A stretch of DNA of 64,000 bases from Patescibacteria group bacterium UBA3531. GTDB taxonomy: Bacteria > Patescibacteriota > Minisyncoccia > Phycocordibacterales > UBA3531. The notes under the pieces were generated by a model that did not search any database, was not told the origin of the DNA, and saw only the letters and a program-made list of their open reading frames with translations. Position 1 is the first letter of the stretch. Every line of letters starts with the position of its first letter. The stretch lies in contig DFOW01000001.1 in assembly GCA_002376885.1 (NCBI GenBank), positions 143,741-207,740 of the forward strand. The letters are read 5' to 3'. The translations under genes were made by a program, and so were the position numbers. Positions 2,946 to 57,715 of the stretch are shown here, piece after piece.

Positions 2946-3160
2946 GTTCTATGGACTAAAAAGCTATTAAACAAAATGTCGTCACTTTGTTTATACCATA
3001 TTTTATTGCTAGTGGTAAATAGTTTAGAGTTTAAAACAAAAAACCACCACTTAGGGCAGTTTTTTGTTTTGGCTACGGCACTCAGCCGGTATGCAATTTT
3101 TCAGAATAGTACTCGGCGTTGTTTCGACCCTCCTAGGGCGCTGAAACACCGCGCTCGAGT

Positions 3161-3245: not shown

Positions 3246-4283
3246 TTATTTATCTTGCCCTATTACATCAACCAAGGCAAGTTCAAGAGGGAGCGAAGAA
3301 ATGTGTGCATACTTAATTTCTTCATATGCTTCAATCAAACGTCTCAACATACGGGGGAGTTCTTTTGCGTGTGGGTGGCTTCCAAGCGCTTCTATTTCTT
3401 TTGCTTGGTCATCTCCTAGTTCTTCCTCTAAACCTTCTTTAATACTGGACGAAAAAGAAACAAGCATGGCGTTTCTCATATAATTCATAATAAGACGAGC
3501 AAACAATTTCATGTCGGTATTTTTATTATTTGCTTTTTTGAGTGCTTCTATTCCCCTCTCTACCTCTTTATCAAGAATACTTTCTATATAATCAATCACC
3601 AGTTTGTGTGATGGTGCCCCTGTTAAGGACTCTACTTCATCACGAGTTATCGACTTGTTTTTTGTGAGACTCAAAACCTGTTCTAAATATCCTTGTGTAT
3701 CTCTAAATGATCCGTCTCCCAAGAATGCAATGAGTGACACTGCATCATCATCTATAGAAGTCTTTTCTGCTTTGGCGATATTCTCGATAGTTTTTTTGAG
3801 GATTTTTTCAGTCGGTTTTTTAAATATAAAACTTTGACACCGAGAGACGATAGTATCGGGAACTTTATGGAGTTCTGTTGTTGCTAAAATAAACACTACA
3901 TACGACGGTGGTTCTTCGAGTGTTTTTAGAAGTGCATTAAATGCTTCTTTCGTAAGCATGTGCACTTCATCTATTACATATACCTTATAAGGACTCGCAA
4001 AAGGAAGTGTGGCAACACCTTCTTTTAAGGATCTGATTTCATCAATCCCACGATTACTTGCTCCATCGATTTCATAAAGATCTTCAGGAGAAGTTTTTAA
4101 TTCACGCGCAAGAATCCGTGCAATGCTTGTTTTGCCTGTACCCCGCGGACCCGAAAAAAGATACGCATGAGAGATAGATTTATTTTTAAGAGAGTGTTTT
4201 AACGCCTCAACAATATGGTCTTGCCCAAGAACGTCATTTAAAGATTGTGGTCTGTATTTTCGATAGAGTGCAACTTGTTCCAT
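3246..4283 (-). CDS. dnaX: DNA polymerase III subunit gamma/tau (short form)
   Basis: MEQVALYRKYRPQSLNDVLGQDHIV...LFSGPRGTGKTSIARILAREL: Walker A and DnaX N-terminal signature; start moved to internal ATG (M21 of track ORF). Confidence 0.85.
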   Translation of the reverse strand: MEQVALYRKYRPQSLNDVLGQDHIVEALKHSLKNKSISHAYLFSGPRGTGKTSIARILARELKTSPEDLYEIDGASNRGIDEIRSLKEGVATLPFASPYKVYVIDEVHMLTKEAFNALLKTLEEPPSYVVFILATTELHKVPDTIVSRCQSFIFKKPTEKILKKTIENIAKAEKTSIDDDAVSLIAFLGDGSFRDTQGYLEQVLSLTKNKSITRDEVESLTGAPSHKLVIDYIESILDKEVERGIEALKKANNKNTDMKLFARLIMNYMRNAMLVSFSSSIKEGLEEELGDDQAKEIEALGSHPHAKELPRMLRRLIEAYEEIKYAHISSLPLELALVDVIGQDK

Positions 4284-9472: not shown

Positions 9473-9507
9473 TTTTTCATTCTAGCAGAAATGCTAGGAT
9501 AGTCACA

Positions 9508-10368
9508 ATGAACCCATTTGGCGATGTTCCGCTTCGCACACTAAAAGGAGACGACATTCCGGAAACTCTACGGGAGATCCCTGACCCTCCTAAAAAACTG
9601 TATGTACAAGGAGACTTACCAAAAGACTCTATTTATTTAACCGTTGTTGGTGCCCGAAAATATTCTGCATACGGAAAAGGCGCTTGTGAAGACATTATCG
9701 AAGGACTTAAAAATTATCCTTTTACTATCGTCTCAGGGCTTGCACTTGGTATTGATGGAATAGCCCATAAAAAAGCACTCGAAGTTGGTTTGCCGACCAT
9801 TGCTGTTCCAGGATCAGGACTTGATCCCTCAGTGATCGCGCCACGCACCAATTATTTTTTGGCACAAGACATTGTAAAAAGTGGTGGAGCGCTGTTGTCT
9901 GAATTTGAGCCAACCATGCCGGCCGCTCCCCGCACTTTTCCAAAACGAAACCGGATCATGGCTGGACTCTCTCAAGGTATTCTTATAATAGAAGCAACAA
10001 AAAAGTCAGGCACGTTAATTACCGCACGTCTTGGGCTCGACTACAATAAAAATATTTTTGCTGTCCCTGGGGCTATAACATCCCCCACAAGCGAAGGACC
10101 AAATTGGTTAATAAAAGAAGGAGCCACACCAGTTACCGACGCTCGTGATATTTTAGAAGTCTTTGGATTTGACACTCAAGATGAACCCAAAAACAAAGAA
10201 CCACTTCAAGGAAAAGAAAAAGAGCTCTTTGAACACATACAAAAATTCCCTAACAAAACAGATCTTTTAGAAAAAACAGGATGGTCAATAACCGACATTA
10301 ATATTGTAGGAACATCGCTTGAATTAAAAGGCTTAGTAAAAGACAACGGAGAAACATTTTCTTTTTAA
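9508..10368 (+). CDS. dprA: DNA-processing protein DprA (Smf)
   Basis: LTVVGARKYSAYG...IVSGLALGIDGIAHK...FPKRNRIMAGLS.GILIIEA Rossmann-like DprA signature. Confidence 0.85.
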   Translation: MNPFGDVPLRTLKGDDIPETLREIPDPPKKLYVQGDLPKDSIYLTVVGARKYSAYGKGACEDIIEGLKNYPFTIVSGLALGIDGIAHKKALEVGLPTIAVPGSGLDPSVIAPRTNYFLAQDIVKSGGALLSEFEPTMPAAPRTFPKRNRIMAGLSQGILIIEATKKSGTLITARLGLDYNKNIFAVPGAITSPTSEGPNWLIKEGATPVTDARDILEVFGFDTQDEPKNKEPLQGKEKELFEHIQKFPNKTDLLEKTGWSITDINIVGTSLELKGLVKDNGETFSF

Positions 10369-15521: not shown

Positions 15522-15530
15522 CAATTTAAT

Positions 15531-15653
15531 CCAGGGAAGGAATTGGTAGGTGAAATGTCTGGGAGACATTTCACGACGACTATCTAAATCTTCTCTTCGG
15601 AGGTGGGAGTTCCCTGCCTTGTCGGCAGACAGGGATTCTCCCCCCGGGCACCA
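15531..15653 (+). pseudogene. degenerate tRNA-Leu-derived copy with hairpin insertions (tRNA-like element)
   Basis: Shares D-loop GGAATTGGTAG, variable arm and T-stem with the adjacent tRNA-Leu. Carries a perfect 11-bp hairpin with GGG loop (GTGAAATGTCT-GGG-AGACATTTCAC) and a 21-nt insertion in the T-loop. Anticodon arm destroyed, acceptor ends do not pair, ends GCACCA. Confidence 0.5.
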
Positions 15654-15679: not shown

Positions 15680-16090
15680 TTGGTTAAATCAGTAATGGGT
15701 GGCAATGGGTGCCACAAAGCTCATGTACCACTTGTCTTTGGGGAGACAAACGTGAAACAAGGAAGGACGTCCTGTGAAGATCCGTTCGTCAACTTCAACG
15801 ATCACCTCTACAAGCGCCGGGGCATCGGCTCGCTCGAAGAGGGGAAGCTCGAACGGACGGAGGATCGACCCGCCTGGGTGCCGGAGGAAGCGACCGTCGC
15901 TGTACGGACGCGGCGCCTCCACGAACGGAGGGTTCTCGAGGTAACCACGTTCCGCCCGAACGGGAGCGGGTTCATCGAACAGAAGAACATCTTGGGAGGC
16001 GGCCGCGGTAGCATGCCGTCCCCCCAGATCGTGGAGATGCTCCTGAAGGAGGAGTACCCCTCGATCGACGTCCACCTCATCCAGGGCTAG
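15680..16090 (+). CDS. G+C-rich ORFan (cassette B); alternative GTG start at 15752
   Basis: Strong G/C bias at third codon positions in this frame; AGGAAGG just before internal GTG; overlapping minus-strand ORF 15689..16075 treated as GC shadow. Confidence 0.4.
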   Translation: MVKSVMGGNGCHKAHVPLVFGETNVKQGRTSCEDPFVNFNDHLYKRRGIGSLEEGKLERTEDRPAWVPEEATVAVRTRRLHERRVLEVTTFRPNGSGFIEQKNILGGGRGSMPSPQIVEMLLKEEYPSIDVHLIQG

Positions 16091-17183: not shown

Positions 17184-17210
17184 CGTTATGAATAGTGTGC
17201 TTCCTGCACC
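17184..17210. repeat. 27-bp direct repeat copy of the rpmG 3' end (cgttatgaatagtgtgcttcctgcacc)
   Basis: Matches 17326-17352 (cgttatgCatagtgtgcttcctgcacc) with one mismatch; separated by a GC-rich 105-bp spacer. Confidence 0.7.
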
Positions 17211-17311
17211 TATTACCACTCGGAAACCCACGGTTTTCCGACGGCTTCGCCTGCCTTTCTCCACGGGAAAACTAGAGTTTTCCCGACCCCTTTCCTGCAA
17301 ATGGTACAGGA

Positions 17312-17470
17312 TTACTTTTTTATTTCGTTATGCATAGTGTGCTTCCTGCACCATTTACAGTGCTTTTTGAGTTCAATTTTACGCTCAACAAGCTTCCGAT
17401 TCTTTCGGCTCCAGTAATTAGTGCGCTTACAATCTTTGCACGCAAGTTTTATAAGTTGATCTTGTGACAT
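17312..17470 (-). CDS. rpmG: 50S ribosomal protein L33
   Basis: 52-aa ORF below track cutoff: MSQDQLIKLACKDCKRTNYWSRKNRKLVERKIELKKHCKWCRKHTMHNEIKK, with CxxC...CxxC zinc ribbon and HxxE ending typical of L33. Confidence 0.75.
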   Translation of the reverse strand: MSQDQLIKLACKDCKRTNYWSRKNRKLVERKIELKKHCKWCRKHTMHNEIKK

Positions 17471-17532
17471 ATATTCAAAATTTGAGCTTCATAAAGATAC
17501 CCCATAGACCCTGAAAAATCAAGAGAAAAGGC

Positions 17533-17928
17533 TCACCATGCGGCGAGCCTTCCTTCCCCCGTGCCCTCGGGCTTGGGAGGAATGGCGCTTCTCTGCGGCC
17601 TTCGGAAGAACTGAGATTCCCCCATGGCACGCAACATCTTGACGAAGTCGTCCTCGACACAGAAACCGAGCCTCATGATGCACTCGGGACCATCGCAAAG
17701 GACAACGACAGCGTGACTTCCTTGGGCGCCGTCCTTGGGCTGGAAGACCGAGACCCTTCCTTGGAAGCGCCAAGCAACCAAGCAATCGATGAATCCGATC
17801 TTCGTCCCACAACGAGGACAGACGCGCTTGGGGCACCACACCCCAAACCCAGCACCGGCACTGATACTGTCAGCAACCGAAGACCCCCAGGAAGTGACCC
17901 AATAATCTTCGGGAACAATCTGCGTCAC
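17533..17928 (-). CDS. G+C-rich ORFan with 4-Cys zinc-ribbon-like motif (cassette C), GTG start
   Basis: CPKRVCPRCG...CDGPEC; GC3-rich; AAAGGGGGGG upstream of GTG; no family recognised. Confidence 0.4.
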   Translation of the reverse strand: MTQIVPEDYWVTSWGSSVADSISAGAGFGVWCPKRVCPRCGTKIGFIDCLVAWRFQGRVSVFQPKDGAQGSHAVVVLCDGPECIMRLGFCVEDDFVKMLRAMGESQFFRRPQRSAIPPKPEGTGEGRLAAW

Positions 17929-17961
17929 AGCCCCCCCTTTCTGAAAAACACTTTACCTTTT

Positions 17962-17990
17962 TTGACATAAAAAAGAAAGCATAGTATGGT
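17962..17990 (+). promoter_or_regulatory. promoter TTGACAtaaaaaag-17-TATGGT for cassette C plus-strand gene
   Basis: TTGACA 17962-17967, TATGGT 17985-17990. Confidence 0.45.
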
Positions 17991-18303
17991 TTACGTCTGT
18001 TCTTATTGGGGAAGGAGCCCTATAGACATGCACCATGTTGAAGTGCTAGACATCGATGGATTCCAGAACTTCCGCCTACATGAGGGAGACGAGATCATCC
18101 TCCCTGGCGTTCATCTCGAAGCCTCTCCCGCCCCGGGAGACAAGGTGAAGCTCGCCTTCCGTGACGTGGACTGCGTGACGAAGACGAGAGAAGCACTCAT
18201 CACCGGATCCATCGACCCCGGCGAGCCGAGCAACCCGAGGGAGCCCGTGGCTCCCAAGGACATCCGAGTTCGGTGGAACGATCCCATCGTGCGCTGGTCC
18301 TAA
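17986..18303 (+). CDS. G+C-rich ORFan (cassette C), 105 aa (alternative start 18028)
   Basis: GC3-rich frame, followed by strong terminator; no family recognised. Confidence 0.4.
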   Translation: MVYVCSYWGRSPIDMHHVEVLDIDGFQNFRLHEGDEIILPGVHLEASPAPGDKVKLAFRDVDCVTKTREALITGSIDPGEPSNPREPVAPKDIRVRWNDPIVRWS

Positions 18304-18316
18304 CGGACCAGACAAA

Positions 18317-18352
18317 GACCCCCGCGCATGCGCGGGGGTCTCGTCATTTTTA
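18317..18352 (+). terminator. intrinsic terminator GACCCCCGCGCATGCGCGGGGGTC + T-run
   Basis: 12-bp perfect GC stem followed by tcgtcatttttat. Confidence 0.7.
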
Positions 18353-18485
18353 TACAGTGTGCGCCGGGCAGGATTCGGTCACGAGTTACAAATTCGCTTT
18401 GCTCATAAGTACTCTCGACCCCAGCTCAAAAATAATCTCCCAGATTATTTTTTCCGCTCTTCGAATCCTAATTCCAGTCCAGAAA

Positions 18486-25883: not shown

Positions 25884-26630
25884 ATGCAGTATATAATATT
25901 ATCACCTTGTATGGGTATAAAATATTTAATAGACGAGCAATACTTTGAGAGCTGGTCCCCTGAAATGGCATACATTCTTGGATTTTTATATGCAGACGGA
26001 AGTTTGGAAAACGCTCCTAAACTGCGAGGAAAATATGTCAGAGCAACAAGCACCGATCTTGAAGTAATAAAACATATAAAAAAATCTTTACGTTCTGAAC
26101 ACAGAATAATCATAATACCCTCTTTTAGAAAGAGAAAAGAGAGATACTTGTTCAGAGCTGGAAGCCATGTTCTTTTTGATTCATTGACACAACATGGCCT
26201 TTTTCCAAATAAGTCTTTATCAATGAAGTTCCCCAAAAACATCCCTTCAAACTACCTAAGTCATTTTATAAGGGGATATTTTGATGGTGATGGATGTGTT
26301 CACTTGTCACAGGCCCGCAACCGAGAAGGTGCTCTACTGGTTAAAAGATTGGGCGTTGTCTTTACAAGCGGAAGTGAGTTATTTTTAAAAGAATTAGAAC
26401 GAGAAATCAGAAATGTCTTAAATATCAAAAAAAGAAATATCTATAAGAGTCGTCGTTCATTCCAGTTACGATATAGCACGACTGACAGTATAGAACTATT
26501 TACATTGATATATGCAAATACAAAAAATTTATTTTATTTAGGTAGAAAAAAAGAGATTTTCCTTCGATATTTTAAGTTGCGACCTCAGAGAATTAATACT
26601 AATATTGGTAAAATGTTAAAAAATATGTAA
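25884..26630 (+). CDS. free-standing LAGLIDADG homing endonuclease (two LAGLIDADG motifs)
   Basis: LGFLYADGS and IRGYFDGDGCV motifs about 100 aa apart; basic C-terminus. Confidence 0.75.
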   Translation: MQYIILSPCMGIKYLIDEQYFESWSPEMAYILGFLYADGSLENAPKLRGKYVRATSTDLEVIKHIKKSLRSEHRIIIIPSFRKRKERYLFRAGSHVLFDSLTQHGLFPNKSLSMKFPKNIPSNYLSHFIRGYFDGDGCVHLSQARNREGALLVKRLGVVFTSGSELFLKELEREIRNVLNIKKRNIYKSRRSFQLRYSTTDSIELFTLIYANTKNLFYLGRKKEIFLRYFKLRPQRINTNIGKMLKNM

Positions 26631-26835: not shown

Positions 26836-26848
26836 TAACCGCCCATAG
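26836..26848. repeat. 13-bp duplicate of the tRNA-Lys 5' end (taaccgcccatag)
   Basis: Exact copy of 26916-26928, about 80 bp upstream of the tRNA. Confidence 0.6.
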
Positions 26849-26918
26849 TTGATAGAGATTGAAAGCGTGGGACGCTTTAAATGCGATAAACGGTAAGGTA
26901 ATATAGGAAAAAATTTAA

Positions 26919-28296: not shown

Positions 28297-29475
28297 ATGT
28301 CAATCATAACCCTGACGTTGATCGTCTTCGTCACGCTCCTTGTTCTGAGTGTGCCGTTGTTCGTCCTCGTTGCGTGGCTCCTGGCCTACCTGGATATCTT
28401 TTTTGGATTCCTCCAGGAGAATACGGGCTTCGCCAAGATCGTTGGAGACAACCAACTTCAAAGCATGCAAATCGCTTCGAAGAGTCAGCACCTCAAAAGG
28501 AAGGTGGTCCAACACCCTGAGGCGGGCGCAATCGAGACGTGGGTTCTGGAACAAGGAGCAGATCCCAACCCTGCCTTCGGCCTTATTGGTTGGATGGAGC
28601 GCAAGCTTGGTGTCTACTGGATTGGTGTTTGGCCGTTCCAAAGGCGCTACCGGTACGAGATGTTCCGAACCGTCTTCGATCGGAGTGCTGACGCAGACGA
28701 GAACACGATCCTCCGGAAGAATGACCAGAGCAAGTTCTTCTACGTTCAGCCGGTGGAGTACGCCTTCTCTCTCCTCGGAGCAGAGACAGGCAGTGCCTTC
28801 GCTGGCGACACAGAAGATACGGACACTTCGTCTCGGGGTGGCAACATCCCGGTGAACGTGAAGTTCTCCGTGTTCCTCTTGATCACAAGACCCGAGATTG
28901 CCCTCTTCAAGAACCCTGTATGGTTCGAGCGAGCAAGCTCGATCCTTCTGTCCGCAGCGAAGAACTACGTCGGCACTCGTGCGTATGAGGCGCTCCGTGG
29001 CGAAAGCCGATCGGACACCGCAGACGTCGAGACCGATGATGCCTTCGCGGGCTACATGCGGGATCTGAACGAAGCGATTCCGGGAACCGGTCACGGCTTC
29101 GAATCCGAGATCGGTGCCAAGATCGTCGGAGCGGCCATCAGAGCCGTCGACATCACGGCGGAGGGCGAAGAGGCCCGAAGCGCAACGCTGCTCCTCTACG
29201 GAGAAGAGCAGCGCGCCAAGGGAATCCGAGCCGTCGCTGATGCGCGTCGCTACGAGCTCGAACAGGAGCTCGATGCAGTCGATGGATCCCCCAACGGGGG
29301 GCACGTCCGTCGGATGCGCGCGATCGAGCGTGCAGGTGAGCGTGGTAACACAATCATCTTCACGAGCGGCGGCGACGAAAAGGAGGATCGTGTCGCAGCG
29401 AACCTTCTGGCTGGCCGCAAGGGTGAAGACCCCTCAAGCGAAGGCACCGATGACTCCACCGAGAAGGAGGAGTAG
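28297..29475 (+). CDS. G+C-rich SPFH/band-7-like membrane protein (cassette D)
   Basis: N-terminal TM, beta-rich core with ...ASSILLSAAKNYVGTRAYEAL..., EIGAKIVGAAIRAVDI, then A/E/R-rich coiled-coil AEGEEARSA...RAKGIRAVADARRYE as in HflK/C-flotillin. Confidence 0.5.
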   Translation: MSIITLTLIVFVTLLVLSVPLFVLVAWLLAYLDIFFGFLQENTGFAKIVGDNQLQSMQIASKSQHLKRKVVQHPEAGAIETWVLEQGADPNPAFGLIGWMERKLGVYWIGVWPFQRRYRYEMFRTVFDRSADADENTILRKNDQSKFFYVQPVEYAFSLLGAETGSAFAGDTEDTDTSSRGGNIPVNVKFSVFLLITRPEIALFKNPVWFERASSILLSAAKNYVGTRAYEALRGESRSDTADVETDDAFAGYMRDLNEAIPGTGHGFESEIGAKIVGAAIRAVDITAEGEEARSATLLLYGEEQRAKGIRAVADARRYELEQELDAVDGSPNGGHVRRMRAIERAGERGNTIIFTSGGDEKEDRVAANLLAGRKGEDPSSEGTDDSTEKEE

Positions 29476-30252
29476 ATGAAGATGCCTGACTCGATAAGGG
29501 GGCTTGGGTGGAAGCGGTTCTCCGCAACTGCCCTTACCTCGTTCATCCTCGTCATTGTCTCGTTCATGATCGTGAACGCAGGCGAGGGCGAGGCAGAGAA
29601 GGTCTTCAAGACTCTCTCTGTGATTGCGACCGGGATTGGAGCACTCCTCGTTCTCCTGCTTCTTCTCGTGATCGTGTCGTCTCTTGCTCGTAGGCGTCGG
29701 TCTCTCAAAAAAGAGACTCCCGTCGTCGACAAGCCGACCAAACCAGGAAGATGGCAGAAGTTCAGGGCCACTCCCTTCTTCTGGACACTCTTCAAGGTCT
29801 CCGCCTTCGTAGTGGCAGTAGTCATTGCAATAAGCGGATTCCCTCTGTTGCGTGACGCCATGAACATCCCCGACGTGGGGCCCAGGAATGGAGATCTCAA
29901 GTTCTCCAAGTGGACGCTCTCCAGTACACCACTGTCGTACAACCTGAATCGAACGACACGTGGTACGGTCAAGATCTGGAAGAAAGAGCGTCGCTTTGAG
30001 CTTCCGTTCTTCTTGAACATGAAGCTCATGGGCGAGGATGGAGTTCTCGTGGGGCAAATCACCTCGAGTGACTTTGCCATGGGCGAGACCTTCCCCGTCA
30101 CCTGGGAGATGACCTGGCGAGACCATATGACCGGAGACGGAGCCCTCGAGTGTCACTACAACAAACACCACAGCGTGATTGCTTGTAACGGCACCATCTG
30201 CGGCGAAGATTCCGAAGGTCGGAGGTGTCGTCGAGTGAACTTTAGCGGCTAG
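29476..30252 (+). CDS. G+C-rich membrane protein (3 TM + Cys-containing soluble C-domain), start abuts upstream stop; possible NfeD-like partner
   Basis: TAG-ATG junction at 29473-29478; three hydrophobic helices; no family recognised. Confidence 0.4.
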   Translation: MKMPDSIRGLGWKRFSATALTSFILVIVSFMIVNAGEGEAEKVFKTLSVIATGIGALLVLLLLLVIVSSLARRRRSLKKETPVVDKPTKPGRWQKFRATPFFWTLFKVSAFVVAVVIAISGFPLLRDAMNIPDVGPRNGDLKFSKWTLSSTPLSYNLNRTTRGTVKIWKKERRFELPFFLNMKLMGEDGVLVGQITSSDFAMGETFPVTWEMTWRDHMTGDGALECHYNKHHSVIACNGTICGEDSEGRRCRRVNFSG

Positions 30253-48722: not shown

Positions 48723-48731
48723 CCCAGAGAC

Positions 48732-48786
48732 GGGGCGATTAGCTCAGCTGGCTAGCAGATAAAACGATACCCCGTATCATTTTATC
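48732..48786 (+). pseudogene. tRNA 5'-half-like fragment (GGGGCGATTAGCTCAGCTGGCTAGCAG) followed by 12-bp-stem hairpin
   Basis: Resembles acceptor + D-arm of the downstream tRNA-Val but has no 3' half; then GATAAAACGATA-ccccg-TATCATTTTATC. Confidence 0.4.
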
Positions 48787-53024: not shown

Positions 53025-53501
53025 ATGTTACGAAAACAATCATTTTTGGATAAATTAACCGGCGGAATTCCTCTTGATGAAGAAGAACCTCTTATGCGAG
53101 ACGACCATAAAGAGCCCATTATTTCAGAAGAAGAAACAAATGACGATGAGTGGATTGAAGAGGATGCAGAAGAAGGACAATTGACCGTTGATGTTTTTCA
53201 AAATCCAAATGAGATTGTTATTAAAACAATGGTAGCTGGTGTTAAGCCAGAAGACATTGATGTTTCTATAAATCGAGAGATGGTTACCATTAAGGGGCGG
53301 AGGCACCAAGAAGACGTCATTGAAGACAAGGACTTTTATTTTAAAGAATTATATTGGGGAGGATTTTCTCGAACTATTTTACTTCCAGAAGAAGTTGACC
53401 CCGACGGCGCCCAAGCAACAGAAACAAATGGCCTTTTAACAATCAGACTTCCAAAACACGACAAAGCCCATACAAAAAATATTAAGGTGAAGAGTCGGTA
53501 G
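53025..53501 (+). CDS. Hsp20/alpha-crystallin small heat-shock protein
   Basis: ACD core ...VDVFQNPNEIVIKTMVAGVKPEDIDVSI...G.F.R...LP. Confidence 0.8.
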   Translation: MLRKQSFLDKLTGGIPLDEEEPLMRDDHKEPIISEEETNDDEWIEEDAEEGQLTVDVFQNPNEIVIKTMVAGVKPEDIDVSINREMVTIKGRRHQEDVIEDKDFYFKELYWGGFSRTILLPEEVDPDGAQATETNGLLTIRLPKHDKAHTKNIKVKSR

Positions 53502-53510
53502 GCTTTTTAT

Positions 53511-53622
53511 TTAGGGTCGGGCTCGAACCGACGGTCTCCCTCGCTTCGTTCGGATGAAAAGTAATCCCATTACTTTTCATCCCTTCGCCATCCGGCGAAG
53601 GATCATTTAAACTAACCCTGCC
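53511..53622 (-). pseudogene. degenerate tRNA-Phe-derived copy with hairpin insertions (tRNA-like element)
   Basis: T-arm GTCGGTTCGAGCCCGAC identical to adjacent tRNA-Phe; anticodon arm replaced by TTCGCC-GGAT-GGCGAA tetraloop hairpin; inserted perfect 14-bp hairpin GGATGAAAAGTAAT-GGG-ATTACTTTTCATCC; acceptor does not pair. Confidence 0.45.
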
Positions 53623-53658
53623 AAAAATAAAATCCCACACGCGGTGGAATTTTATTTT

Positions 53659-53735
53659 TGGTGCCCAGGGTCGGGCTCGAACCGACGACCCTTCGCTCTT
53701 CAGGCGAATGCTCTAGCCAACTGAGCTACCTGGGC
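53659..53735 (-). tRNA. tRNA-Phe (anticodon GAA), CCA encoded
   Basis: Acceptor GCCCAGG/CCTGGGC, anticodon stem TTCGC/GCGAA loop CTGAAGA, ends CACCA. Confidence 0.85.
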
Positions 53736-53751
53736 ATATACGCAGAGGTAA

Positions 53752-54012
53752 TTATTGTCCAACGTTTTGAATTGCCTCTCGCGCCGCTTGATACGTATCC
53801 AGCAACTGGTTCACATATGGTTCAAGGAAGAAGAGAAGTCCTGAAACCGCCCCAATAATGAGTATCCAATAGAGAGCCGTAAATACGCGTCTCCATTTTA
53901 TGTATGAATACACCTTCTTCAAAAGCTCATTGTTTTTCTGAATGAGCTCATTATTCTCTTTAACGAGTTTTTCTAATTGATCTCCTTCCATAACCAGTCG
54001 CCATTCTAGCAA
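53752..54012 (-). CDS. small membrane protein (coiled-coil N-term + TM)
   Basis: 86 aa between tRNA-Phe and tRNA-Arg. Confidence 0.3.
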   Translation of the reverse strand: MLEWRLVMEGDQLEKLVKENNELIQKNNELLKKVYSYIKWRRVFTALYWILIIGAVSGLLFFLEPYVNQLLDTYQAAREAIQNVGQ

Positions 54013-57274: not shown

Positions 57275-57300
57275 AGCACTACTATACTAAAGTATTTCTC

Positions 57301-57347
57301 TTAAAAAGAAAGCCGCCTCGAGTCCACAATGGGTACCCGGGCGGCGG
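57301..57347 (-). terminator. GC hairpin + U-run ending the cassette G transcript just upstream of lepA start
   Basis: Minus RNA ...CUCCGCCGCCCGGGUACCCAUUGUGGACUCGAGGCGGCUUUCUUUUU. Confidence 0.45.
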
Positions 57348-57453
57348 AGTGGACGGCACCTGGGTGCGTCCATGGTTTTCTAGTGCGCAAGGCGCACCTT
57401 GGTGGAAGGTCCCAGCTCAAGGGGTGAGCCTCGAGTCTGGGCGGAAGGCGGAT

Positions 57454-57648
57454 CTAGCCGAAGAGGGGCGCACCGAGCGAGACGACCCCGCCGGGCAGGA
57501 TCACGTGACCCCGACCATCCGAACCGAGCGGCGGACCGCTGAGCTCGGAGAACGGGATCTCGCTCTCGCGACGGAGCCGGCGAACCGAGCCACGCGTCCG
57601 GGTGCTCTCCTTGGTGCGTACCGTGCCTTCGCCTTCCTGTTTCTTCAT
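57454..57648 (-). CDS. very G+C-rich small basic ORF (cassette G), 64 aa; coding status uncertain
   Basis: AGGAAGGGAAGGAAT-cccg-ATG context; track ORF begins at TTG inside the -35 box so trimmed to internal ATG. Confidence 0.3.
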   Translation of the reverse strand: MKKQEGEGTVRTKESTRTRGSVRRLRRESEIPFSELSGPPLGSDGRGHVILPGGVVSLGAPLFG

Positions 57649-57715
57649 CGGGATTCCTTCCCTTCCTGAAGTTCTCTTTCGAGCGCGGCCCCCAGCCACG
57701 CTACGTCCACTATCC

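Follow-up and report, generated by a model that had tools for sequence, protein, structure and literature searches.

The Hsp20/tRNA-Phe locus

The stretch of DNA analyzed here, 64 kb in length and referred to as the window, has a GC content of 41% and carries 13 tRNAs together with a class A bacterial RNase P RNA. Contigs identical to it were recovered from a JGI marine metagenome, from the NCBI MAG GCA_002708165.1 and from a Tara Oceans run (Logan). The nearest relatives of its ValRS, at 58-71% identity, all belong to Paceibacteria/Parcubacteria (Patescibacteria, CPR) MAGs. Genes at the locus are arranged in the order ValRS, PrsW, Hsp20, tRNA-Phe, orf86 and tRNA-Arg, and the element under study, termed E2, lies between Hsp20 and tRNA-Phe. 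These two flanking genes are convergent, with Hsp20 on the plus strand (stop codon at 53501) and tRNA-Phe on the minus strand (53659-53735). The tRNA-Phe (GAA), called by ARAGORN and scored at 69.7 bits by the Rfam tRNA model, is functional and represents the parent of E2. A homologue search with the 86-aa product of orf86 returned the query alone. The transformation protein DprA is encoded among the window ORFs that were scanned.

An AT-rich, bidirectional terminator-like hairpin with an 18-pair stem (53620-53662) separates tRNA-Phe from E2. Its outer arms reach into the 3' end of tRNA-Phe on one side and into the sequence GGCAGGG, an inverted copy of the acceptor 3' strand, on the other. Since the same sequence of E2 is present in three independent assemblies (JGI, NCBI MAG and Logan), an assembly artefact is excluded.

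Structure of E2

An earlier note had placed a tRNA-like element at 53511-53622. The element is indeed located there, on the minus strand, but its extent is slightly longer (~53505-53627) and comprises a closing stem together with three hairpins. In the RNA sense, E2 reads GGCAGGGTTAGTTTAAATGATC, followed by hairpin A (CTTCGCC GGAT GGCGAAG), hairpin B (GGATGAAAAGTAAT GGG ATTACTTTTCATCC), the linker GAACGAAGCGAGGGAGAC, the block CGTCGGTTCGAGCCCGACCCT and a terminal AAAT. Its 5' start is the GGCAGGG mentioned above, which is an imperfect inverted copy of the tRNA-Phe acceptor 3' strand, and its D region is degenerate (TTAGTTTAAATGATC).

The derivation from tRNA-Phe that the note had proposed is borne out by a nearly full-length alignment of the two sequences, interrupted by one large hairpin-bearing insertion of 41-46 nt. 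The former anticodon arm has become hairpin A (53583-53600, minus strand), a 7-bp stem closed by the GGAT loop that the note had described, and the 7-nt anticodon loop of tRNA-Phe is lost. Hairpin B (53552-53582, minus strand) has no counterpart in tRNA-Phe. As the note had stated, its stem comprises 14 base pairs and its loop is GGG; the stem is perfect, and by our own arithmetic such a hairpin is expected by chance ~2e-4 times per 64 kb. The linker separates hairpin B from a 21-nt block (53513-53533, minus strand) that is identical to tRNA-Phe (blastn, 21/21), confirming the reported identity of the T-arm. This block spans the variable loop, the T-arm and the first 3 nt of the acceptor 3' strand (CCT), and its chance expectation, again calculated by ourselves, is ~3e-8 matches per 64 kb. 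The last 8 nt of tRNA-Phe are absent from E2.

In the RNAalifold consensus, the linker sequence CGAAGCGAGG pairs with CCGUCGGUUCG, that is, with the T-stem 5' strand and the T-loop, to form hairpin C (53524-53548, minus strand). Hairpin C constitutes an alternative to the T-arm and is conserved between the window and a syntenic relative, described below. As an RNA, E2 is predicted to adopt a four-way junction with a folding energy of -55.8 kcal/mol (z = -6.1 relative to 200 shuffles); the plus strand folds at -48.4 kcal/mol (z = -5.7).

Comparison of E2 with known RNA, coding and integrated elements

E2 was missed as a tRNA by both ARAGORN at default settings and the Rfam tRNA model. With a lowered threshold, ARAGORN forced it into an implausible 'tRNA-Arg with 40-nt intron'. 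Carrying GGAT in place of an anticodon loop and missing the acceptor 3' strand, E2 cannot decode as a tRNA. A cmscan of 53400-53800 with E-values up to 10 returned the real tRNA and hairpin noise alone. No Rfam model for tmRNA, YrlA or mascRNA matched E2, and ARAGORN -m reported nothing. A group I intron within a tRNA was rejected as well, with no RF00028 match in the window at the gathering threshold or locally at E up to 10. Taken over the window (gathering threshold), the E1 and E2 regions (E up to 10) and five related loci (E up to 5), Rfam searches yielded true tRNAs and RNase P only. A scan of 53350-53850 returned no Rho-independent terminator; hairpin B itself is AT-rich and followed by GAACGAAG, rather than being the GC-rich stem with U-tract of a terminator. 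No conserved promoter of E2 was found.

As at att sites, an identical direct repeat of 21 nt lies 126 nt downstream of the intact tRNA-Phe. The interval between gene and repeat consists of the terminator hairpin and ~120 nt only, with neither integrase nor cargo. Tyrosine or serine recombinases were not found among the 20 window ORFs scanned, and the other 38 predicted ORFs are mostly housekeeping genes. Comparison of E2 and of E4, a further element of the window, with 50,697 phage records by blastn gave no match. A metagenome-wide pattern scan with the anchors ATGGCGAAGG and CGANCGAAGCGAGG spaced by N20-40 returned 11 unrelated, GC-rich chance matches, missed the source contig itself and yielded no additional orthologue of E2.

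The JGI annotation calls a 52-aa ORF over E2 (53482-53640), and the frame is open both in the window and in the syntenic relative L084. No Shine-Dalgarno sequence with proper spacing precedes this ORF. Between the two species, 1 synonymous difference stands against at least 5 non-synonymous ones, two of which are the paired changes of a hairpin. Given this ratio and the missing ribosome-binding site, coding does not account for the conservation of E2, and a coding function was rejected.

Conservation of E2

A relative from sample SRR10895356 (loci L084 and L101) is syntenic with the window, encodes an Hsp20 that is 79-82% identical and contains an E2 orthologue. Over ~100 nt, E2 and its counterpart at L084 2033-2152 are ~92% identical, a comparison that covers two species. 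The same two genomes share 40% identity at 610 4-fold degenerate sites, which corresponds to saturation, and their tRNA-Phe genes are 100% identical. The hairpin between tRNA-Phe and E2 (53620-53662) is replaced in L084 by a wholly different sequence that forms a hairpin nonetheless.

Within hairpin B, one U-A pair of the window is changed to C-G in L084, a compensatory double change that leaves the GGG loop in place, and the remaining substitutions are located in loops. The loop of hairpin A reads GAAT in L084 on an unchanged stem. A closing stem exists in both species with different sequence: the window forms it from GGC/GCC and AGGG/CCCT, L084 from GGTGAT/ATCACC and AGG/CCT. Only 15 nt of the 21-nt block remain in L084 and the 3' strand of the T-arm is lost. 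Hence the T-arm identity with tRNA-Phe, though real, is not the conserved part of E2, which instead comprises the hairpins and the linker.

The site is not occupied throughout. In L089, a relative at a similar distance, tRNA-Phe is followed by a terminator, ~45 nt and Hsp20, representing an empty site. The more distant L085 and L055 have a pseudo-tRNA-Phe upstream of the intact gene, which contains a duplicate of the 5' 25-40 nt and, behind the anticodon/variable region, an inserted hairpin or module. To judge from these alignments, E2 is constrained wherever it is present, yet has been gained and lost among lineages. The identity of ~92% in the face of saturated silent sites and a diverged terminator, together with the compensatory pair, argues against random decay. 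We propose that E2 is now maintained by purifying selection as a three-hairpin structure, acting either as tRNA-sense RNA or as single-stranded DNA.

Related elements in the window

Five tRNA-adjacent elements (E1, E2, E3, E6 and E7) are present in the window, and a sixth module (E4) sits at the 3' end of rpmG. E1 (15530-15653, plus strand) is a pseudo-tRNA derived from tRNA-Leu(CAA). A gap of 7 nt that contains no terminator separates it from the preceding real tRNA-Leu. A GGG hairpin (GTGAAATGTCT GGG AGACATTTCAC, 15550-15574) follows its D-loop and a second hairpin (15613-15633) is inserted within the T-loop between TTC and GATT. The 3' end of E1, CCCGGGCACCA, is Phe-like with an encoded CCA. 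E1 is thus a chimera in which a Leu body carries a T-loop hairpin of the Arg type and an acceptor end of the Phe type. It is not conserved in L101. A GC-rich island beside E1, considered as a large ncRNA, turned out to be a conserved ORF.

E3 (18357-18470, minus strand) is a structured module that follows tRNA-Tyr and its terminator. It is composed of an inverted T-arm copy, a GGG hairpin (AAAAATAATCT GGG AGATTATTTTT, 18428-18452), a long GGUCG/UGACC helix and an exact direct copy of the last 21 nt of tRNA-Tyr, in this order. A strong terminator (18316-18341) comes after it. E4 (17199-17350, minus strand) is a conserved module in the 3' end of rpmG (L33), flanked on both sides by the 17-nt direct repeat TGCAGGAAGCACACTAT. 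Behind it lies a diverged duplicate of the final L33 codons (CRKHTMHNEIKK versus CRKHTIHNEVKK). A copy of the E4 module that is ~90% identical, with one compensatory pair, is found behind tRNA-Arg in L047, a Wolfebacteria MAG. Two of the elements involve tRNA 5' parts. E6 (26838-26918, plus strand), directly upstream of tRNA-Lys, joins a copy of the tRNA-Lys 5' end (CCGCCCATAG...) to the hairpin ATTGAAAGCGT GGG ACGCTTTAAAT. E7 (48730-48786, plus strand), between tRNA-Glu and the promoter of tRNA-Val, consists of a tRNA 5' half (GGGGCGATTAGCTCAGCTGGCTAG) and a 13-bp hairpin whose loop is CCC in the tRNA sense.

When one mismatch is allowed, the window holds 7 GGG-triloop hairpins compared to 0.73 in shuffled sequence, an excess of about 10-fold. 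Their 5' arms across the 64 kb have TGAAA(A/T)G in common, whereas the rest is divergent with pairing maintained. Of the 7, 5 are located within 150 nt of a tRNA. The note had ascribed a common architecture to E2 and the tRNA-Leu element 38 kb away. The two do share the hairpin type within tRNA-derived repeats, but no one fixed fold, as the GGG hairpin is located in the D-loop of E1, in the variable/anticodon region of E2 and in a variable hairpin of the structured module of E3. An ORF for a LAGLIDADG protein also occurs in the window. It stops 5 nt ahead of tRNA-Cys, and a search upstream of it revealed no displaced copy of tRNA-Cys.

Recurrence in related Patescibacteria

A set of 87 related Patescibacteria loci, amounting to 1.0 Mb and 217 tRNAs, was used for comparison. 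We counted copies of a tRNA's own 3' end of at least 14 nt with at most one mismatch within 520 nt, leaving out one hit pair as a cross-match of adjacent tRNAs. Such a copy lies downstream of 20 of the 217 tRNAs and upstream of none. Typically it begins in the T-loop at (T)CGA and stops exactly at the gene end. The interval from the tRNA to its copy contains a terminator, often a hairpin-split inverted copy of the tRNA 3' end, and a conserved core. A frequent arrangement is a long palindrome made up of tRNA end, spacer, terminator, reverse-complement spacer and inverted tRNA-end copy. The repeats carry the genomic CAC after the discriminator and not CCA, and an origin from reverse-transcribed mature tRNA was rejected on these grounds.

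Perfect GGG/CCC-triloop hairpins of at least 8 bp show the same preference. Across the 1.0 Mb, 8 of 10 fall within 300 nt downstream of a tRNA, a zone that makes up 6.1% of the sequence, and in 7 of these 8 the loop is GGG in the tRNA sense. Insertion sites recur as well. A hairpin with the base CCYGCC...GGCRGG occupies the T-loop position TTC^RATT in L013, L023 and L046, and E1 bears a close variant (CCTGCC...GACAGG) at this position. Remnants of tRNA-Phe in L046 and L060 have a hairpin between the 5' strand of the anticodon stem and the loop. In L084, a pseudo-tRNA whose closing stem measures 20 bp harbors a functional tRNA-Arg within its D-loop, and in L060 a GIY-YIG ORF is situated between an intact tRNA-Phe and the displaced 3' two-thirds of that gene. 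Tandem arrays were observed in L024, L016, L066 and L076. The view of the note that a recurrent design speaks against random decay is therefore upheld, by the ~92% versus 40% identity, by the compensatory pair, by the further elements of the window and by their common occurrence in relatives.

A covarying module downstream of tRNAs

Several of these cores share a structured module, for which we built the covariance model R1 from a seed of nine cores aligned by hand and with MAFFT. The module is defined by a GAAAGCCG..CGAGGC helix and a long GGUCG...UGACC hairpin with a conserved G.U pair. In the RNAalifold structure of the nine cores, 14 of 20 pairs display compensatory changes. Searching the 1.0 Mb with R1 yielded 27 hits at E-values up to 1. 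On the same strand as a tRNA and 0-252 nt downstream of it lie 21 of these hits; a further one is found behind a tRNA-Trp truncated by the contig end. In an alignment of the 27 sequences that was itself fitted to the R1 model, which has to be borne in mind for the covariation statistics, 94.4% of cells are paired as opposed to 67.4% in shuffles, 18 of 20 pairs undergo double changes, and the covariation score reaches 0.645, while shuffles score 0.19 and slid partners no more than 0.108. Of the 27 sequences, 19 retain the G.U pair of the GGUCG/UGACC helix, which fixes folding to the tRNA-sense strand. No Rfam family corresponds to the R1 sites.

E3 is the only R1 member within the window (83.1 bits, E = 3e-19). 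E2, in comparison, scored 1.5 bits (E = 3.6) with filters off and was rejected as a member of this family. The module follows tRNA-Tyr in the window and in L102, and tRNA-Trp in the close relative L101; the window has no R1 module at tRNA-Trp. In L102, an R1 hit also follows topA, and behind it the final ~20 codons of topA recur as a diverged duplicate. Besides R1, module types include the rpmG/tRNA-Arg type represented by E4 and a GGGUACUGA type.

Origin of E2 and alternative explanations

We consider E2 to be a retained product of small cassettes that insert into and rebuild tRNA genes, leaving in this case a non-decoding, remodelled copy of tRNA-Phe, and assign a probability of roughly one half to this origin. 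An intact gene beside a partial copy, a junction located in a loop, and a terminator or promoter in the intervening DNA together form the signature of a target-rebuilding insertion. For the recombination mechanism and the mobiliser of the cassette we infer the following course. A cassette of ~150-400 nt would recombine within a target gene, which is a tRNA or, in a few cases, the 3' end of a protein gene, and would supply a working replacement of the gene part beyond the junction along with its own terminator or promoter. The resident part of the gene would thereby be displaced and persist as a flanking partial copy. Long perfect hairpins, in the present case with GGG as the triloop, would be borne by cassette and junctions, often together with a conserved structured module enclosed by inverted and direct copies of the tRNA 3' end. 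The driving force of recombination might be a homing endonuclease, or else a crossover of the site-specific or Campbell type. E2 would then represent a displaced or duplicated tRNA-Phe copy with a hairpin module inserted at the anticodon/variable region, later retained by purifying selection on its three-hairpin structure.

Mobility is favored by equal modules at non-matching targets, by the end duplicates of rpmG and topA, by the tandem arrays and by the chimeric nature of E1, and the homing-endonuclease genes next to tRNAs in L060 and in the window are in line with it. Against a cassette origin of E2 stand the lack of a recombinase or endonuclease gene adjoining it and the missing last 8 nt of the tRNA copy, which differs in this from a typical displaced 3' fragment. 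An excised form, a circle junction or a strict pair of empty and occupied alleles within one species was not observed. The connection of E2 to the module-bearing elements is one by analogy, resting on position, tRNA-derived repeats and hairpin type and involving no homology of the core. The strong conservation of E2 is more in keeping with a functional site, as RNA or DNA, than with a scar alone, and its origin is therefore better supported than its present function.

On a wider scale, the elements apparently form a widespread class, small, structured, clustered at Patescibacteria tRNA genes and, as it appears, both undescribed and mobile. Their tiny ORF-less size, the covarying module, the combination of inverted and direct target copies and the recurrent triloop hairpins are unusual features. 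We tentatively suggest that Patescibacteria harbor undescribed ORF-less structured mobile elements of ~150-250 nt which home to the T-loop/3' end of tRNAs and to the 3' ends of rpmG and topA, and that E2 might be a domesticated copy kept as a three-hairpin RNA; this fuller scenario is speculative.

Among the alternatives, E2 could be a stand-alone functional tRNA-like small RNA that is transcribed with or after tRNA-Phe and trimmed at its ends by tRNA-processing enzymes, which we regard as a rather doubtful though serious possibility. It is similarly doubtful whether the extra hairpins, with the GGG triloop as a D-loop-like or protein-binding knob, would carry the function and the elements constitute an RNA gene family. 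Sequence conservation with a compensatory pair despite saturated silent sites is in line with a small RNA, as is the very stable four-way-junction fold. Insertions into pseudo-tRNAs are always found in cloverleaf loops and leave the rest of the fold intact, R1 exhibits RNA-like covariation with a strand-specific conserved G.U, and E1 directly follows tRNA-Leu with an encoded CCA end and no intervening terminator. On the other hand, E2 is located behind a terminator-like hairpin with no conserved promoter found, is absent from the equally close L089, lacks conservation of its acceptor-like stem sequence, has a broken T-arm in L084 and matches no Rfam family. A small-RNA function would also leave unexplained why copy ends match their own neighboring tRNA and why rpmG and topA ends are duplicated.

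Selection might instead act on the plus strand, with E2 serving as a structured 3' UTR that stabilizes or regulates the convergent Hsp20 mRNA and with its tRNA origin being incidental. From the stop codon at 53501, E2 fills the gap up to the sole terminator-like hairpin (53620-53662), the arrangement in L084 is equal and the plus-strand fold is strong (-48.4 kcal/mol, z = -5.7). A stabilizing hairpin, however, needs structure and not 92% identity, and L089 manages without E2. Moreover, E1, E3, E6 and E7 lie outside 3' UTRs of convergent genes and the orientation of the GGG loop tracks the tRNA strand in 7 of 8 cases, rendering this explanation unlikely.

Equally improbable, in our view, is a role of the elements as recombination sites made of folded single-strand DNA, comparable to integron attC or CTX-phage attP, with E2 as a degenerate example. 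Inverted and direct tRNA-end copies would in that case pair to mimic a double-stranded target, and the hairpins would be the variable terminal structure, a notion with the same low probability. The order of inverted copy, variable structured core and direct target-end copy would agree with such sites, and so would the palindrome centered on the terminator, the strand-specific folding with its G.T/U wobble and the tandem arrays at a regenerated target. In contrast, no cognate recombinase was found in the 20 window ORFs scanned, the primary sequence of the modules is conserved, unlike in attC, and the inverted copy in E2 (GGCAGGG) is weak.

A plain tRNA pseudogene, arisen by tandem duplication and decaying neutrally with hairpins formed by chance or by quasi-palindrome template switching, is highly improbable, since despite the tandem copy adjoining its parent, the degenerate D-arm, the lost acceptor 3' strand and an anticodon stem 'perfected' and extended as template switching could achieve, it is contradicted by the ~92% identity versus 40% at silent sites next to a diverged terminator, by the compensatory change in hairpin B, by the ~10-fold excess of GGG-triloop hairpins over shuffles with their concentration at tRNAs, and by the recurrence of hairpin types and positions in unrelated genomes.

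Relation to known systems and implications

Elements integrated into tRNA genes are flanked by displaced tRNA 3' fragments in the form of attL/attR direct repeats, and rpmG 3' ends are known integration sites. Sublocations of integrases within tRNA genes were reportedly described by Williams in 2002. The elements studied here resemble such att-flanked elements in that a direct copy of the 3' part, starting in the T- or anticodon loop and ending at the gene end, lies behind an intact tRNA, and in forming tandem arrays. They differ in that the repeats enclose only 50-380 nt of DNA, which lack an integrase and carry a conserved structured module as well as the target end in inverted copy. E2 is further set apart by retaining 5' parts of the tRNA and by not containing its last 8 nt.

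Free-standing homing-endonuclease cassettes in fungal mitochondrial genes supply the target with a new 3' end, while the resident one persists downstream as a pseudo-copy. The rebuilt gene end with a displaced, sometimes diverged resident end at rpmG, topA and tRNAs is alike, as are the GIY-YIG gene between the two copies in L060 and the LAGLIDADG gene abutting tRNA-Cys in the window. Unlike these cassettes, however, most copies including E2 are without an ORF, the hosts are bacteria rather than organelles, and any role of an endonuclease here is putative.

Short palindromic mobile repeats comprise REP/BIME, Rickettsia palindromic elements, mitochondrial double-hairpin elements and GC clusters. 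In common with them, hairpins of 25-31 nt recur here in a reduced genome at sites that structured RNAs tolerate, with a fixed GGG loop. In contrast to them, the stems are very different between copies, each genome has few copies, and these are bound to tRNA-derived sequence instead of being scattered. With the tRNA-like domain of tmRNA, YrlA, mascRNA and the t-elements of plant mitochondria, E2 shares a tRNA-derived, non-decoding fold on which tRNA-processing enzymes might possibly act. It differs from these in giving no Rfam match and in an acceptor and T-arm that are not conserved in its orthologue.

Our literature searches returned no description of these tRNA-flanking elements, the nearest report being PMC13011429. 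It describes group I introns within the tRNA genes of Patescibacteria, ribozymes of ~200-400 nt that reside at position 35/36 of one functional gene and can be detected with RF00028, and makes no mention of duplicated or pseudo-tRNA flanks. Both cases concern the same phylum and tRNA genes interrupted by an inserted RNA structure that standard annotation overlooks. The elements described here, however, give no group I hit, have inserts of 20-130 nt and are accompanied by an intact copy of the tRNA.

Patescibacteria genomes are among the smallest of bacteria, yet about one in ten tRNA genes in the sampled loci bears extra elements, and within the window this applies to 5 of 13 tRNAs. Should the elements be mobile target-rebuilding cassettes, they would represent a new minimal kind of selfish DNA or RNA aimed at genes, through which tRNA genes would be turned over and chimeric tRNAs would arise in a major bacterial lineage. 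Should they act as RNAs, R1 would be a strongly covarying, abundant and unannotated class of structured RNA that numbers 27 hits per Mb and belongs to no Rfam family. The elements also account for unusual ORF predictions, among them the 52-aa 'gene' over E2, and for pseudo-tRNA signals in MAG annotation.

A structured module behind tRNA genes

Behind the tRNA-Tyr gene, we found a structured module (window 18357-18470, minus strand; E3) of a type that trails tRNA genes and is also present at 27 sites in the related Patescibacteria loci. Covariation within the module is strong, a G.U pair is conserved, and the module terminates in a duplicate of the 3' end of the tRNA located upstream of it. The E3 type has no Rfam family. 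It is apparently a hitherto undescribed RNA (or ssDNA) motif, common among Paceibacteria.

The 3' end of rpmG, encoding L33, carries a second conserved module as an insertion, distinct from the E3 type (window 17199-17350, minus strand; E4). With it come a 17-nt direct repeat and a duplicated, diverged version of the final L33 codons. In the related locus L047, the E4 module was found after tRNA-Arg.

Pseudo-tRNA pieces with hairpins

Two further 5' fragments of pseudo-tRNAs each carry a long triloop hairpin. The first, with a GGG loop, is located upstream of tRNA-Lys (window 26838-26918, plus strand; E6), and the second, whose loop reads CCC in the tRNA sense, between tRNA-Glu and the tRNA-Val promoter (window 48730-48786, plus strand; E7). 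Downstream of tRNA-Gln (window 3060-3160, minus strand), the sequence ..CCTAGGAGGGTCGAAAC.. ends in CCGTAGCCA, which is similar to the tRNA-Gln 3' end; this region is possibly one more element.

In the related locus L084 (2640-2900, minus strand), a functional tRNA-Arg is housed in the D-loop of a pseudo-tRNA. The acceptor stem of this pseudo-tRNA is lengthened to a perfect 20-bp helix, and an 11-bp CCC-loop hairpin stands in place of its anticodon arm.

Homing-endonuclease-like ORFs and a recombinase at tRNA genes

A free-standing LAGLIDADG homing-endonuclease-like ORF (window 25884-26630, plus strand; Pfam 5.8e-12) ends 5 nt short of tRNA-Cys, and the sequence upstream of the ORF yielded no displaced fragment of that tRNA. 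In L060 (~9480-9847, minus strand), an 88-aa GIY-YIG ORF separates an intact tRNA-Phe from a displaced partial copy that covers the 3' two-thirds of the gene and has a hairpin where the anticodon loop begins. An insertion between miaA and tRNA-Trp in L102 (5110-7669) comprises a large serine recombinase and a 403-aa ORF; the same position in the relative L101 holds a small element of the R1 family, to which E3 belongs.

GC-rich islands

Positions 15680-16090 of the window (plus strand) contain a 136-aa ORF of 60-65% GC, compared to 41% for the genome. The ORF has no Pfam family and is conserved in L101 at 3560-3950; the JGI annotation at this locus is on the opposite strand. Other islands reach 55-70% GC. 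Two short ORFs without Pfam matches are located in 17500-18340, adjoining E3, and neither of the two ORFs in 28297-30252 (392 and 258 aa) has a significant Pfam match. The third island (57300-57700), with no Rfam match and no convincing ORFs, spans 400 nt between lepA and a murJ-like gene.
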